Source: a virus
Length of the DNA stretch: 64,000 nucleotides
Reading direction: 5' to 3' (one strand)
Virus record (IMG/VR): IMGVR_UViG_3300028394_000042
The notes under the pieces are model-generated. The model saw only the letters and a list, made by a program, of their open reading frames with translations. It had not been told where the DNA came from and ran no database searches. Made by a program: the position numbers and the translations under genes. This document shows, one piece after another, positions 45,342 to 64,000 of this stretch (the stretch's first letter is position 1; the number at the start of each line of letters is the position of its first letter).

Positions 45342-45685
45342 CCGCCCCTCCGAATCCGGTCGTGGACCTGCTTGCGAAACTCCATCATTTCTTCGCGAGT
45401 GGCATCACTGACAAGGTTTACCAGATACTTGCCGTCAACCTTGTCACGCATACTGCCACAGGTGTCGTGTAGCAGCCCGGACATGAATACACTGTCTGGC
45501 TTTCCGGTGGCTGTAACGCGGAAGTTCCAGCAGCCACCGCAAGACAGCCACTCCCATACTTCCTGCAACGATATATTCGTTGCATTTTGCCCGACAGTGT
45601 ATTCGTCCCCGCGCCTATATGGGTCGGAGATTAAGATATCAAAGCCCGATATCTTTTCGCATTCCTCGTAGTAGACAACGTCCAT
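45338..45685 (-). CDS. hypothetical protein
   Basis: coupled ORF. Confidence 0.55.
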   Translation of the reverse strand: MDVVYYEECEKISGFDILISDPYRRGDEYTVGQNATNISLQEVWEWLSCGGCWNFRVTATGKPDSVFMSGLLHDTCGSMRDKVDGKYLVNLVSDATREEMMEFRKQVHDRIRRGG

Positions 45686-46170
45686 CAGCGTGTCTCCTTT
45701 GGGCTTAATTCAAACAACGCGTCAGGCGGCCGATAGGCGCCCGGCAGTTCTGTTTTTGCCATATACCCCGGCTCGTGTAGACACCGGTCGAGAATAAAGT
45801 CGGCCTCTGCGCGGAGGTGCTCTTTACTCACATCCGCCAGCATGCTTCTGGTGTACTCAACGCCCTTGAACTCAAACGTTTTCTGTTCAGGGATTGTGAA
45901 CTCCAAGGTACCGAGCGACGAATCATCTGACTCGTGCACATGACATGTCTGCACAGTCACGCCAACCAAGTTCTCGTACTTGGCGTGCTCTGGAAGCCAC
46001 GGCCATTGGTGCGCCTGCGGTATAAGCAGGGTGACAGGCACCAGACAAGTTAAGCCCTTGATAGTCGCCCAGTCTTGCTCTAACTGGGCATACTCGGCAC
46101 GCGTCAATATCGCGTACCACTCCTTGTAGCCGAACTCCTCTGAGATCAAGAGGAGAACTTTGTCTTCCAT
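45685..46170 (-). CDS. hypothetical protein
   Basis: AGGAGG RBS. Confidence 0.65.
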   Translation of the reverse strand: MEDKVLLLISEEFGYKEWYAILTRAEYAQLEQDWATIKGLTCLVPVTLLIPQAHQWPWLPEHAKYENLVGVTVQTCHVHESDDSSLGTLEFTIPEQKTFEFKGVEYTRSMLADVSKEHLRAEADFILDRCLHEPGYMAKTELPGAYRPPDALFELSPKETR

Positions 46171-46336
46171 GCGAGCTACCTCCTGAGAAAGAAAACCGGG
46201 TGGGCCTTTTACGCCCCAGCCCTTATCTGAGACTATCTGCAGATCTTCTCAGTGCTCCTCCACGCATTCGCACGCCACCGAGTTCCCCGGCAGTCGGCGA
46301 ATGAAACAAAGTAGCGCCCGGTTATTTCCACCACAT

Positions 46337-46410
<74 letters not shown>

Positions 46411-46599
46411 CTAGAGACCCCGTTGCAATTTAACCCTGCGCACACGGGATAACATGCGCGGGGCGATGGTGTTACACATAATCTCGTATGCCGGCGACTA
46501 CCCCTGACTGGCATACAATATCCGAACTTTTGCACATCATCAACTAGCTGGCAATACCGGCTAGTTGGGTATGCACTGGCGTTGGACGACCAGATGGAA

Positions 46600-46911
46600 G
46601 CCTGCCGTACCTAGCGCAGCCTTACCCTGCCGGGCCTAACCGTGCCTGCCTGTCCACGGCTGGCCGAGCCCTGCCTTGCCACTACCACGCCTGCCAAGCC
46701 CGACCCAGTCATGCCTGTCCTGACCGAGCCGTGCCTAGCCGAGCCTGCCGTGCCCTGCCGCCCGTTCCCAGACTAGCCGGGGCATGCCCGCTCCGTGCCT
46801 GCCGTGCCTTACCCTGCCGGACCAAACCTTGCCACGCCTAGCCGAGCCTGCCGTGTCTAACCGCGCCCGTCCAAGCCACACCCTGCCGAGCCTAACCGCG
46901 CCTGCCGTGTC
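46600..46911 (-). ncRNA. GGY-NN pentamer guide-like array: 6 units delimited by 7 GGCAGGC motifs (VIPR-like vrRNA array)
   Basis: GCCTGCC on + at 46600, 46644, 46689, 46743, 46797, 46846 and 46900; spacing 44, 45, 54, 54, 49, 54 (4+5n except one); starts right after the partner gene stop. Confidence 0.85.
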
Positions 46912-46914
46912 TTA

Positions 46915-47376
46915 TCAGGCCCGCGCAGCTTGCCGGTTAGTACGGCGAGCCACGCGGTCAATCGCGGTAAACACAGGAGTTAACTCCTGCAAGGTCTGAT
47001 ACTTTCGCCGAACCCGCTGAAACTCTTCCAGACCCTGCTCTAGTAACTGTGCCCGCATGTCCTCGTCACTCATCACGTCTTCCAGCGTGCGATAACCGCC
47101 GCCGGTGTGACGATCAGATTTGAGAGAGACATACATCGGCACCGTTACATCGCCGCCCGCGGTGGGCAGCACATTGATATTTAAACGGATCACACGTCGG
47201 GCCTGCTCCAGTCGGTACTGATGCGCCGCTTTCGTGTTATTCCATTCGAACTCGCCGTGCAGCGCCGTGTTGCGGTTGCGGGCAAACTCAACGATAGCTT
47301 CAGGCAGTAGCTGCCCGTCGTTGTCGTTGCGGATCTGTTCAAGTTCCGCCCGAATCCTATCTTTGTTCTTTGACAT
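46915..47376 (-). CDS. accessory protein of the RAMP/array locus
   Basis: helical protein with LH..FEW....AA..YRL.QAR..IR; lies between the RAMP gene and the array. Confidence 0.8.
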   Translation of the reverse strand: MSKNKDRIRAELEQIRNDNDGQLLPEAIVEFARNRNTALHGEFEWNNTKAAHQYRLEQARRVIRLNINVLPTAGGDVTVPMYVSLKSDRHTGGGYRTLEDVMSDEDMRAQLLEQGLEEFQRVRRKYQTLQELTPVFTAIDRVARRTNRQAARA

Positions 47377-47393
47377 CACGTTTCCTTTTGGTG

Positions 47394-48149
47394 TCAATTA
47401 CGCACGCACTCAAAGTGCCCCCAACCCATACCGCACGAGTTAGGCGAATCAGCCCGACCTTCGCCAACGCCTACCTGCATGCCGGCACGCAGCATGAGAT
47501 TGGCAATGTCCGCAGGAGTGAACATATCCGCGTCAAAGCGGATACGAACCTTGGCTTCCCACGTGTCATACATAGCTCGAACCCTGATGTCGGCAACACC
47601 CGTGGCATTGCGCACCGTATGTTCAACGTGCCTTGGGACTGCATCCACCAGCTTACCGCGAGAATTCCGAGATTGAAGCCGGATTAGCGGCGTACCCTCA
47701 AACCTGTCAAACCCGTCCGCCTCCACAAAAACAGCCTTCTTGGCCTTGGTTTTGTGGAACCCGACCACCACGCAGGAGTCGACCAGCGCGTTGCGGAGCG
47801 CGCCTGCCGGGATACCGCACCACCCCTGCTTCGACTTGTGCTGAGCCTCTTCGAAGTTGGCGTCGAAGTCCTTAGCTTCGCGCTTCTTTCCCTTGCCGGC
47901 CGTGGAGCCAGCGGCCTGTTTTTCGCGCATTATGTTCCGAGCCTTGGCGCCGAACGCCAGCTGAACATATGGCGCCGTGCCGCGGATAAGGATCTCCACG
48001 GTCTTGAAGTTCGGCGCCGTGATAGTGACGCCAAGCCGATCAGATACAACTGCGTCGCTCTTATCGTCCTTTGGGCTGAGATGCTTTTCAACCTCGACCT
48101 TGACCTTGGTCTTCGTCGTCTTCTTTGCGCCCTTCAAAAGAGATGCCAT
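47394..48149 (-). CDS. stand-alone RAMP/Cas7-like RNA-binding protein (Vipr-like)
   Basis: beta1 IRGTAPY, GIPAGALRNAL (IPxxxLK/R helix motif), terminal glycine loop GMQVGVGEGR..GMGWGHF. Confidence 0.75.
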   Translation of the reverse strand: MASLLKGAKKTTKTKVKVEVEKHLSPKDDKSDAVVSDRLGVTITAPNFKTVEILIRGTAPYVQLAFGAKARNIMREKQAAGSTAGKGKKREAKDFDANFEEAQHKSKQGWCGIPAGALRNALVDSCVVVGFHKTKAKKAVFVEADGFDRFEGTPLIRLQSRNSRGKLVDAVPRHVEHTVRNATGVADIRVRAMYDTWEAKVRIRFDADMFTPADIANLMLRAGMQVGVGEGRADSPNSCGMGWGHFECVRN

Positions 48150-49545: not shown

Positions 49546-49629
49546 TAGCCGGGGCGGGGTATGATCCCGCACGGGATTGCTCCCCCGGGATTTTAAATCC
49601 CGTGCGTCTGCCAATTTCGCCACCCGGCC
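49546..49629 (-). tRNA. tRNA-Leu(TAA)
   Basis: cloverleaf with long variable arm, anticodon loop TTTAAAA, atypical T-loop ATCATAC. Confidence 0.85.
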
Positions 49630-50294: not shown

Positions 50295-50368
50295 TGGAGC
50301 CTCTGGGGATCGAACCCAGAACCCTCGGATTAAAAGTCCGATGCTCTAACCAGTTGAGCTAAGGCTCC
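50295..50368 (-). tRNA. tRNA-Lys(TTT)
   Basis: GGAGCCTTAGCTCAACTGGTTAGAGCATCGGACT-TTT-AATCCGAGGGTTCTGGGTTCGATCCCCAGAGGCTCCA. Confidence 0.93.
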
Positions 50369-58042: not shown

Positions 58043-59881
<1,839 letters not shown>

Positions 59882-59942: not shown

Positions 59943-60299
59943 TTACAGCGTAGAAGCCTCTATGAACGCTGCATCAATTGCCGCGCTGTCCATGCCAAAA
60001 GAGGCGGCTAATTGCGCAAGCATGCTACTTGCCCGGCTGATCGTTGGCTCGTATTCCCACTCATCTAGTGTGTCTTCGCGGACGCCGGGTGGCAGGGCGG
60101 CTATCGCGTCTAGAACTTGCTGCACCGTAATGTCGTGCCTGCGCAGCCATTTGCGGATCTGGGCGGCTGTAATTGTGTCTGGAACAACTGGCGCGGTGTC
60201 TAGCGTAGCTTGGTTGTATCCGCAGTATTTGCCGTCGTCGTCATAGACATGCCATGTTTTAAGCCCGCCCACAATGCCAATATATTCTGTTCTGCTCAT
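59943..60299 (-). CDS. tail-fibre-associated small protein
   Basis: VP..IT..Q..WEY..I.R..L..ID..F..A pattern; lies between fibre genes. Confidence 0.65.
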
Positions 60300-63200
60300 G
60301 GCAACAATCTCGCATATGGTCGCAGTGTGTACCCCACAACAGATGTAGTTGGTGTTGGAAGGTCGCTTTGACCGGTCAAATAACCGGATAGTTTTGGATT
60401 TTGCTGCGACGCAGTTACTGGGCCAAGCACAGAACTGACAAGCGTGCTTGCCGTTGTGCCAACTTGTATAACGGCCACGCCGTAGCGTGTGCCAGCGTTT
60501 AATGTGTAAGAGGTTGGGTAACCTCCAGTCGCAGACAACACTCGGTTGTATGCGGTGTTGGCAAGCGCAAAATTTCCAGTGTTGCTATCAGTGCGCGCAA
60601 CTAGTGTTGCTGTTGTTTCGTCGTATGTATATATGCCAAAACGACACAGCGTTAAACCGCTTGCTGCCGATGAGCCACTCCAAAAAGTAATAGACGTAAC
60701 TGTCGTCGTGACGAGCGGCGTAAAAAACGTCCAATGGACAACTCCAGACCCATAACCTTGAGAGGCGTTTTGGAGCATAGGTGCGCCCGCGTCTACGCCA
60801 GAAAGCGACATACCAAGCCACTGGTTCAGCAGCGTTTTTAAGGCAACGTTTGTGCTAAGCTGGGCGTCCGGCAACGTACCAGTTATTAACGTAGACGCGT
60901 TGGTAACCGCAGGGCCTGTTGCGCCTGTTTGACCGGTAGCTCCGGTAGCTCCTGTGCCGTACGAAATCAACTGCGCTGACGCCCAAGTGCCGTTTGTAGC
61001 CTGCAGCGTCACCGACGCGCCGGTACCGTTGTATACCGTAAAGTCGAGATAGTCCGTTGTACCGTTTAAATAGACTACGCGCGTGCCGCCCATAGATACG
61101 CCGCTGTTTGCTGACGACGCTGTGGCCAACTCTTGTGCGATAAAAAACGTGCTTCCATTTTTTCGCGCCTGTGCGTTGTACTGATTATTTGACGCGCTGG
61201 CTGACCCGAACCAAGCAAAAAATGAAACTTCGTAGTAGCCAGCAATATTTGGCGTGATTCTATAAGTACTCGTGTTTAGCCAGCTCTGCGGATCAAAATC
61301 AGACGTATTAAATTGCACAATGTTATCTGAGGCGGACGTAATTGTCTGATCAGCGCTTCTCTTGGCTTGCACAACATAATTACTGGCCGCCACGCCAAAA
61401 CTTGCGCCAGTCGCGCCAGTTACACCTATCGCGCCAGTAGCTCCCGTAACACCCACTACACCTATAGCCCCTGTAGCGCCGGTTACGCCCACGGCTCCCG
61501 TTACGCCAGTAATTCCGGTTACACCTGTAACGCCAATAAGCCCCGTCGCCCCGACTACACCTGTAGCACCAGTTACGCCGGTTACTCCGCTGGTGCCCGT
61601 AGCGCCTGTAACTCCAGTTACACCTACCAGCCCAGTAGCGCCGCTAACTCCAACAACGCCGGTAGCGCCTGTAACGCCTATTGCGCCAGTTACACCAGCT
61701 ACACCAGTAGCGCCTGTAGCGCCAACTGCGCCAGTTACTCCTGTAACACCCACCACCCCAGTTGCGCCAGTTACCCCTGCTACACCAGTAGCACCCGTTG
61801 CGCCAACACTACCAGCACCGCCTGATCCAGAACTAGAGATCGTTAACGTGTCGGCTACAGAGTCGTAGTTAAAGGTAACGTTTGTACCAGCTGCTAACGT
61901 TGTTGTGCTTACGCTAGACGTACCAGTTGCGCCAACCGGGCCAGTAGCGCCTGTAACACCCGCGCCCGTAGCGCCTGTTACGCCAGTGACGCCTACTACC
62001 CCTGTAGCGCCAGTTACGCCTATCAATCCAGTAGCGCCGGTTACACCAACTGTTCCGGTTAATCCTGTAGCTCCGCTAACTCCAACAGCGCCCGTTACTC
62101 CTGTAACGCCAGTGACTCCTACTACCCCCGTAGCGCCGGTCACACCAACAGCGCCCGTTACGCCTGTAACACCTGTAACGCCAGTGACCCCTACTGAACC
62201 AGTAGCGCCTGTAGCCCCGCTAACGCCGATAGCGCCAGCTGCACCCGTGGCGCCGGTTACGCCTACTAATCCGGTAGCGCCGGTAACTCCAACAACACCA
62301 GTAGCCCCAGTTACGCCTACAACGCCGGTGGCGCCTGTAACGCCTATTGCACCAGTAGCTCCACTAACGCCAACTACACCTGTGGCGCCTGTAACACCAC
62401 GCGGCCCAGTAGCGCCTGTAACATCACCGCCAGCACCCCCGCCACCAGTGCCCGCGCTAGCAATATATAGTGTGTCAGTTTCTTCATCATAACTAAACGT
62501 TACGTTCGAACCGGGCGCCAAGGTTGTTGTGCTTATACTTGCCGCACCAGTAGCGCCCGTAACTCCGTCTAAGCCGCTGGGTCCAGTCACACCTGTGGCG
62601 CCAGCAGCAAGAAACAAAGACCAGTCGGCGCCGCCGGGAGGATAACCGGGGTTACCGGGGTTGCTAATTTTTTGATACTGGCTCCCGTCGCTGTAAGTGA
62701 CTACGTCGCCTATGGCGTAAGTCCCTAATCCGTTGTTATAAACACCGCGGTAAATGTATGGTTGCGCCCCAGTAGCTCCTGTTGCGCCAGTTGGGCCGTC
62801 AGGGCCTGTAGCTCCATCTTCTCCGGGCGGGCCGTCAGCGCCGTCAGAGCCTGCAAACCCCTGATCGCCCTGCGGGCCTGTAGGCCCAGTAGCGCCAGAC
62901 ACACCGCTTACGCCGAAACCAGTTGCACCTGTCACGCCCTTTGTGCCTGTGGCGCCCATAACACCAGTTGCGCCAGTCGGGCCAGTTACGCCGGCATCGC
63001 CAGTAGTGCCTATTGGCCCAGTTACGCCAGTTACGCCCGGTGAACCTGTGTCGCCTTTGAAACCAGTCGCGCCTGTTGCGCCAACTGGGCCTGTCGGCCC
63101 CGTTACGCCGCTATCGCCTTGCACGCCAGTGGGGCCTGTAACGCCAACAACGCCAGTAGCCCCAAGCGGGCCAGTTACGCCCGTAACGCCGACCATTCCG

Positions 63201-64000
63201 GTGGCGCCAGAAGGGCCCATCAAGCCACTTACGCCAGTGATTCCAGTTGCGCCTGTGACGCCAGTTAAGCCCGTTAAACCTTGCGCGCCAGTAACGCCAG
63301 CCACACCTGTTGCGCCAACAAAGTTACCGATGTAACGCCAGCTTGCGCCTAACCACAGGTAACCAGCGCCCAGCCCCGCGTACGGCGGCAAAGAACCAGA
63401 CGACAACGCAGCCGCGCCTAGAAACCATATATCGCCAATCGCAGTCGTGCCTGCTGGCGGCCACTCTGTTGCAGTGCCGCGAACTGTGAGCCCTATGCCA
63501 GTAGCGCCAGTTACGCCTGCAACACCTGTGGGGCCGGTAACGCCCACAGCGCCAGTTACGCCAACAGCGCCAGTTGCGCCAGTGACGCCTGCGCCGGTAG
63601 CGCCAGTTACGCCGGTAATGCCAGTAACGCCAGATGCGCTACTCGTGCTATTAATCTGCAGCGTGTCTGTTACGGCGTTGTACGAGAAGGTGATATTTGT
63701 GCCCGGCGACAGAGTTGTCGTACTGACGCTGCTTGAGCCTGTTGGGCCGACAGCGCCTGTTGCACCAGACACGCCTATAGGCCCAGTTGCACCCGTAGTG
63801 CCGACACCTGTAGCTCCTGTGACACCAGTCACGCCAGTGACGCCTGTGTTGCCTGTTGCGCCGGCTGCGCCAGCAGTCCCGGGTAAGCCAGTGGGGCCAG
63901 TTAACCCAGTGGCGCCGGCTAATCCGCGCGGGCCTGTCTCGCCAACAGGGCCAGTCGCGCCAGAGACGCCTGCTGCCCCGGCAAGCCCTGTGGCGCCAGT
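60296..64000 (-). CDS. collagen-like fibre protein, 5'-partial, with a C1q/BclA-like beta domain
   Basis: GXT frame stays open to the window end; [18 protein letters not shown]1q-like head. Confidence 0.9.

Follow-up and report, generated by a model that had tools for sequence, protein, structure and literature searches.

A five-nucleotide repeat array in a large uncultured phage as a very probable guide-RNA array of a staggered VIPR system

What is the function of a run of five-nucleotide words, in which two changing letters alternate with an almost fixed triplet, in the genome of an uncultured phage? The run lies on the minus strand at positions 46600-46912 of a stretch of 64,000 nucleotides, the whole of which was analysed and is called the window here. 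It consists of about 55 NN-GGY pentamers in approximately 310 nt, and lies between the end of a small gene (stop codon at 46915) and a tRNA-Met gene (46337-46410), both on the minus strand. From the letters alone, the original prediction had divided the run into six units and proposed that their NN letters carry information. We conclude that the run is very probably the guide-RNA (vrRNA) array of a phage VIPR system with the architecture called "staggered", and the locus is thus a new example of an already published kind.

VIPR (Viral Interference Programmable Repeat) is described in the available text of three preprints (bioRxiv 10.64898/2026.04.26.720920, 10.64898/2026.04.26.720927 and 2026.10.15.759431) as a stand-alone RAMP protein (Vipr) that is accompanied by an accessory gene (vap) and by vrRNAs made up of 9-16 YNNGG repeats. 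According to the same text, Vipr holds the GGY, and the NN pairs read double-stranded DNA as NN-x-NN-x, the "1-nt skip rule", in rival phages, prophages and satellites. The survey in the first of these preprints counts 667 systems of seven types.

Anatomy of the array

To describe the period of the run, the autocorrelation of the sequence was calculated. It was 0.48-0.51 at lags 5, 10 and 15, as compared with 0.15-0.19 at lags 2, 3, 7 and 8, and secondary peaks were found at lags 49 and 54. The value at lag 5 corresponded to z = 7.5 against shuffled sequences, and the array was the sole period-5 outlier of the 64-kb window, about 9 standard deviations from the mean. The array contained 23 instances of three successive GGY at 5-nt spacing, as against 5 in the rest of the window, both strands taken together. 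Tandem Repeats Finder recovered only fragments of the array because the NN positions vary. Consensus scans detected no promoter or terminator for the array, no CRISPR-type direct repeats (24-40 nt) with unique spacers were present at it, and a search of Rfam over 45500-48000 returned the tRNA as the sole match.

The array was then cut into words of 4-6 nt. A 4-mer, AGGC, following GGC slips the register back by one base, and this happens seven times, which gives six units of 44-54 nt, each composed of an opening AGGC and then NN-GGY pentamers. In a GGY-NN reading, consecutive units overlap by one base: the G that closes the last word of one unit, GGC-AG, also begins the first GGC of the following one. 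From the gene-proximal end, a leader (46904-46914) runs from the vap stop codon to the first delimiter and ends in ACGGC. It is followed by U1 (46850-46903, AGGC and 10 pentamers, 54 nt), U2 (46801-46849, AGGC and 9 pentamers with every triplet GGY, 49 nt), U3 (46747-46800), U4 (46693-46746, AGGC and 10 pentamers, 54 nt), U5 (46648-46692, AGGC and 8 words, 45 nt) and U6 (46604-46647, AGGC and 8 pentamers, 44 nt). A closing AGGC delimiter was placed by the word cutting at 46600-46603, and a trailer follows at 46564-46599, all on the minus strand. The trailer is possibly a 3' end element of the array transcript; the region from the array down to the tRNA folds modestly better than its shuffles (z -2.0).

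The NN strings that had been listed beforehand for U1, U2, U4, U5 and U6 agreed exactly with the sequence. The same reading had taken U3 and U5 as irregular, and the word cutting bears this out: U3 contains one 6-mer and one 4-mer (register slips of +1 and -1) together with several spoiled triplets, and one of the words of U5 is a 6-mer. The remaining four are regular units, in which GGY makes up about 86% of the triplets. The triplets that depart from GGY in the array include GAC, GCC, GTC and CGC. TA is indeed the second pair in four units (U1, U2, U4 and U6), and AC is the last pair in four (U1, U2, U3 and U6).

The tRNA-Met gene follows the array on the minus strand at a distance of about 190 nt, and the two may be transcribed together. 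It is one of three tRNA genes on the minus strand of the window, Met-CAT at 46337-46410, Leu-TAA at 49546-49629 and Lys-TTT at 50295-50368. Elsewhere in the window, two large collagen-like tail-fibre proteins are encoded on the minus strand at 58043-59848 and 60296-63832, with matches to PHROG tail-fibre families at E values down to 1e-113. The PHROGs matched by the large genes of the window are only tail-fibre, head and glycosyltransferase families.

The partner proteins and the family of loci

Two intact genes precede the array on the same strand. The first, vipr (47394-48149), encodes a single-domain, Cas7-like RAMP of 251 aa, and the second, vap (46915-47376), lies between vipr and the array and encodes a protein of 153 aa with a mixed helix/strand fold. 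Pfam and PDB sequence searches with the two proteins gave nothing useful. An AlphaFold model of the 251-aa protein built from 32 homologues had a pLDDT of 80. The top Foldseek matches of this model in the PDB were all Csm3, Cmr4 or type VII Cas7 (E from 1.6e-5), and in a VIA-align search the first 36 rows were all CRISPR RAMPs, the best being Csm3 with Z 10.7. A total of 1821 homologues was found. Alignment of the family profile with the 195-aa Vipr of Escherichia phage SUSP1 by hhalign gave a probability of 85% and an E value of 5.8e-6 over 112 columns.

In the SUSP1 protein, R138, D177 and R179 contact G1, G2 and Y3 of the repeat (bioRxiv 10.64898/2026.04.26.720927). These residues align to R191, E230 and R232 of the window protein, all of which are invariant in the 32-sequence alignment, as are G227, G231, G240 and G244 of the C-terminal glycine loop to which E230 and R232 belong. 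The tryptophan W178 of SUSP1, which stacks on G2, aligns to G231 and is thus not kept in the window protein; the actinophage homologues retain a tryptophan at this position. The 251-aa protein is a RAMP homologous to SUSP1 Vipr. The vap protein matched phrog_15946, and its model was of high confidence (pLDDT 90.6), with weak fold matches, mostly to winged-helix regulators. It showed no similarity to SUSP1 vap1.

A search at the DNA level in distant mode with the array itself matched stretches annotated as "hypothetical protein" in Mycobacterium phage Donkeykong and Gordonia phage UmaThurman. These stretches are arrays of the same kind, with GGCAGGC punctuation. The 251-aa protein is 30% identical to Donkeykong gp49 (E 8e-24), and the window vap is 34% identical to Donkeykong gp50 and 32% identical to UmaThurman gp41. 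The cyanophage Cy-LDV1 also has vipr and vap, with a Vipr 50% identical to that of the window, and two arrays; vap homologues are part of the module of vipr and array in all three phages. In several actinophage records, CDS calls lie wholly on pentamer arrays, at L001:1371-1757 (Donkeykong gp48), L002:2518-2841 (UmaThurman gp40), L140:893-1081, L141:933-1091, L142:932-1096 and L143:963-1127, all of them "hypothetical protein" entries of GenBank. Because of the period of 5 and the register slips, these actinophage calls are probably false, and very probably do not represent genes. In Mycobacterium phage Gorge, a single CDS (gp54, L142:1133-2350) covers what sister phages have as two genes, vipr and vap. 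It was matched in two pieces by tblastn, and either a fusion or frameshift or an error of sequencing or annotation would account for it.

A relative of the 251-aa protein is encoded in 492 IMG/VR stretches. Eighty of these loci were fetched, and a pentamer array was found beside the vipr relative on the same strand in 78 and on the other strand in 3. Of the 287 distinct units in 83 loci, 234 had a length of 4 mod 5, and the lengths peaked at 44, 49, 54 and 59 nt; regular units contained 7-13 pentamers, most often 9 or 10. The triplets of the family were GGC in 81%, GGT in 7% and GGA in 6%, so that 88% were GGY, while the NN were spread nearly evenly, none of the dinucleotides exceeding 14%. 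The contrast between near-constant triplets and variable NN, first seen in the window, therefore extends to the whole family.

It had also been proposed that the edge positions of the units are semi-conserved. This was sustained for one edge. Throughout the family, A-rich pairs predominate immediately before the delimiter (AA 24%, AC 18% and AT 16%; together 58%), so that the AC at the last position belongs to the context of the delimiter. On the other hand, the TA at the second position is limited to the window and its near relatives: it occurs in 10 of 30 regular units in the window and six such loci (L004-L008 and L010), but TA makes up only about 3% of interior pairs family-wide, and no family-wide enrichment was detected at the second pair.

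Among the VIPR systems described so far, the window array is closest to those termed "staggered", in which each guide directly joins the next, offset by one base, with neither spacer nor tail between them (bioRxiv 10.64898/2026.04.26.720920, legend of fig. S18); as far as the available text of that preprint goes, this architecture stands there without RNA-seq confirmation. The array fits it because it has no per-guide tails and its unit lengths are 4 mod 5. The locus resembles the described systems in having a single RAMP gene with its accessory gene and, on the same strand, abutting GGY/NN repeats; its roughly 55 pentamers exceed the four tandem YNNGG repeats required as a minimum beside vipr. 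The GGC-AGGC delimiter, the lengths of 5k+4, the A-rich last pair and the turnover of units as cassettes come from the present analysis.

The comparison with type II VIPR of SUSP1 (KT454805; Vipr of 195 aa, vap1 and four vrRNAs) shows both likeness and difference. In KT454805, the genes of 195 aa and 146 aa are flanked by GGT-type repeat RNAs with tails. The Vipr proteins are homologous, with the thumb arginine and the acidic and arginine residues of the G-loop conserved in the window protein, and in both cases GGY/NN repeats lie beside the genes. Guides of the staggered family also appear to share the 1-nt-skip, wobble-phased reading of SUSP1, as described below. The SUSP1 guides, however, are about 100 nt long, of GGT type, spaced apart and each provided with a 3' pseudoknot tail according to the available text, whereas those of the window measure 44-54 nt, have mostly GGC triplets and lack tails, each running straight into the next through nothing but the 4-nt AGGC. 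In addition, the window vap is unrelated to vap1, and the window Vipr is 56 aa longer and has a glycine in place of the G2-stacking tryptophan. Assignment of the locus to type II was rejected from the lack of structured 3' tails and of vap1.

More distant comparisons are useful for the fold and for the repeat. The backbone proteins of Class 1 CRISPR (Csm3, Cmr4 and the Cas7 of types I, IV and VII) have their fold in common with Vipr (Z up to 10.7), and in both systems the protein forms a filament on the guide RNA and interrupts its pairing at regular intervals. The period is 5 on the guide with three of five bases hidden in VIPR, and 6 with one base flipped in Class 1 CRISPR. The window locus is without CRISPR repeats, other cas genes or adaptation genes; no Cas family was found among the neighbouring genes in Pfam or PHROGs. 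CRISPR-Cas was rejected on these grounds, namely no direct repeats with spacers and no cas genes nearby. The trp RNA-binding attenuation protein (TRAP) binds (G/U)AG triplets that are 2-3 nt apart. It resembles the present case in a constant triplet every 5 nt on RNA and in one subunit per repeat, and differs in being an unrelated ring protein for which the spacer bases carry no address. TRAP-like ring binding, a G-quadruplex array and DNA iterons were all dropped as identities of the run, its partner being a RAMP homologous to SUSP1 Vipr.

Turnover of the units and their targets

If the NN letters carry information, they should differ among relatives, and comparison of the arrays showed that they do. 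In L004, the Vipr of which is 89% identical to that of the window, the leader, U3, U6 and the trailer (nearly identical) are conserved, and four of the six window units have no counterpart: U1, U2, U4 and U5 gave nothing above the background of unit-against-unit identity (mean 0.61, 95th percentile 0.71). U5 had no clear orthologue in relatives. U6 is the orthologue of the last unit of L004 (identity 0.91, with 2 NN letters changed). Eight cluster F mycobacteriophages share the first two units and the last one, and between these whole units have been gained or lost; the units therefore behave as cassettes. A polarity of gain at the leader end, which the comparison of the window with L004 had suggested, was discarded since in cluster F both ends are conserved and the middle varies. 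The turnover of units that had been anticipated was thus found, and the NN are not invariant.

U3 deserves separate consideration. It is the orthologue of unit 4 of L004 (identity 0.83), and the two share the register slips and 17 of 18 NN letters. Four of the five differences between them fall in triplets, and the spoiled triplets GGG, GCC and GTC of the window correspond to GGT, GGC and GGC in L004. Because L004 carries the slips too, they are old, ancestral features. In U3 the NN letters were kept while the window copy lost some of its protein-binding triplets, a pattern that an old guide in slow decay would show, and so would an irregular guide that is tolerated. The suggestion that U3 is a decaying guide consequently has to be modified: the larger number of spoiled triplets in the window copy agrees with it, but the conserved slips show that U3 is not a fresh wreck.

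To find DNA read by the guides of the window, several collections were searched. No self-target in the window rose above shuffles at skips 0-3; the available text of the 2026 VIPR preprints likewise reports no self-targets. The scans of large collections covered exact 1-nt-skip matches only, whereas the VIPR papers accept an 80% NN match. In these scans, U1 (18-20 specified bases) and U4 (20) had zero exact matches in the IMG/VR, metagenome and genome collections. Their 16-base cores had 1 and 2 matches, respectively, which extended only to 16/20 and 17/20. U2, with 16 specified bases, had 11 exact matches. Its best outside match was a family of three contigs with 17/18, and this match is chance-like because the frame is open for 24 codons only; no other window guide converged on the contigs matched by U2. 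U6, also with 16 specified bases, had 35 exact matches in IMG/VR, mostly on AT-rich contigs with in-phase stops, and these look like chance matches. The matches of U2 and U6 mostly carry in-phase stops, and the counts for U2, U6 and the cores vary with the AT-richness of the pattern, which is what chance would produce. Against the contigs of five relatives, including one complete 198-kb genome, the window guides had nothing within 3 mismatches (2 for U6). An excess of gapped matches over shuffled controls, which had been expected from the prediction, is therefore absent for the six guides of the window, with exact matches only counted in the large collections.

The same approach was extended to the family. 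In an all-against-all test, 142 regular guides were compared with 590 kb of fetched loci with the arrays masked. When no more than one mismatch was allowed, there were 6, 14, 2 and 7 matches at skips of 0, 1, 2 and 3, respectively, and five order-shuffles at skip 1 gave 3-8. The excess at skip 1 is modest (14 versus about 6) and rests on a few loci, two of which are instructive. A guide of L039 (4385-4440) matches L043 (2611-2640) at 20 of 20 NN letters with a 1-nt skip, for which we estimate a chance expectation of about 1e-4. The matched DNA encodes, in frame, the Walker A codons of an ATPase gene located just downstream of the VIPR locus of L043, and the skipped base falls at the wobble position. 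The ATPase orthologue of L039 itself differs from the guide at 3 letters at least. In this match, the final AC pairs with the target and the overlapping AG does not, which suggests that the last pair of a unit remains available for pairing with target DNA. The other guide belongs to L067 (3620-3670). At 15 of 16 letters it agrees with the DNA for the conserved arginine-methionine-tryptophan motif of Vipr in six other loci (near L084:3418, L049:3418 and L041:3490, among others), while the vipr of L067 itself differs there. It is a candidate anti-VIPR guide within the staggered-array clade; guides directed at vipr genes are reported for the SUSP1 family in the available text of the 2026 VIPR preprints. 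From these matches, the published 1-nt-skip rule appears to hold in the staggered-array clade too. As a whole, the view that the NN carry information is upheld at the level of the family, by the turnover of units and by two guides of relatives that read genes of rival phages, but the six guides of the window add no excess of matches to it.

Mechanism, alternative readings and significance

Since no target was found for its six units, the guide function of the window array is one that we infer, and its transcription, processing at the delimiter, loading with Vipr and silencing are described here by analogy. The mechanism is that of SUSP1, and the fold, the conserved residues, the synteny and the target matches within the family speak for it here. 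As judged from their arrangement, vipr, vap and the array would probably be transcribed together from the minus strand. By analogy with SUSP1, one Vipr protomer would occupy each pentamer, with G-G-Y buried and the two N bases presented; the filament would pair with double-stranded DNA by reading NN-x-NN-x, every third base being skipped, and the paired filament would silence a gene in a rival phage, prophage or satellite. The one-base shift caused by AGGC after GGC would end the unit and limit the filament to 8-10 dinucleotides. A more specific idea is that the GGC-AGGC break itself punctuates the filament length or the guide ends, with no need of a structured handle, and that conserved irregular units such as U3 are working guides with a locally different gap. 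We regard this idea as unlikely.

The alternatives accept different parts of the evidence. A real VIPR locus could carry an array that is a relic, the guides having lost their targets or being no longer loaded and the units drifting. The lack of a target for any of the six guides, the register slips of U3 and U5 and the triplets GAC, GCC, GTC and CGC would all agree with a relic, and disturbance of the GGY abolishes silencing according to the available text of the 2026 VIPR preprints. However, vipr and vap are intact and the family-invariant residues are kept, four of the six units are regular with a GGY content close to that of the family (about 86% versus 88%), and the leader, the trailer, U3 and U6 are conserved in the diverged relative L004. 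Moreover, as far as the available text of these preprints goes, internal degeneracy is "frequently observed" in working families, and findable targets exist for only 20 of 41 guides of the SUSP1 clade. We consider a relic to be quite improbable. It is still less likely that the array is a scaffold or decoy RNA, in which a RAMP coats the GGY repeats and the NN have no addressing role. GGY at a period of 5 would be enough by itself for protein binding, and the window array is without targets found, but the L039 guide matches a rival gene at 20/20 in codon phase, the L067 guide reads vipr genes, the NN are nearly evenly spread and replaced as whole units, and in SUSP1 reprogramming of the NN redirects silencing (2026 VIPR preprints, available text).

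Two further readings can be given hardly any credence. Short tandem repeats beside genes for small, possibly DNA-binding proteins are typical of double-stranded DNA sites such as origin iterons, a centromere or a packaging site, and the weak winged-helix-like fold matches of vap point in the same direction. With a 5-bp period, however, neighbouring sites would look out from opposite sides of the helix; in 78 of 80 loci the array keeps to one strand with respect to the genes; and the partner protein is an RNA-binding RAMP, the type member of whose family binds RNA of this kind. We give a set of DNA sites next to no chance. A protein-coding function, as annotated in several actinophage records including those of Donkeykong gp48 and UmaThurman gp40, seems to us just as remote, since the period is 5 and not 3, the longest ORF on the array strand of the window is 48 aa, and one-base register slips recur every 44-54 nt. 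The guide-RNA array of a staggered VIPR system therefore stands as the very probable identity of the run.

The origin of the window gives this assignment its context. Its 251-aa protein is encoded on a contig of at least 165 kb, and the contig of L006 (G003), the Vipr of which is 81% identical to that of the window, is a complete genome of 198,312 bp with direct terminal repeats. From this genome and from the length of the contig, the window is a member of an uncultured phage lineage with genomes of about 200 kb; the phage collection contained no close isolate of the lineage. VIPR is only months old as a described system, and bench study of it has so far been limited to the SUSP1/P. fulva type according to the available text of its preprints. 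The present locus leaves the picture of what VIPR is unchanged. If irregular units of the U3 type are working guides, the published 1-nt-skip code would be extended. The locus adds to VIPR a representative of this uncultured lineage of phages of roughly 200 kb, and the comparisons made from it give a concrete description of the staggered architecture, with a GGC-AGGC delimiter, units of 5k+4 nt, an A-rich last pair and the turnover of units as cassettes.
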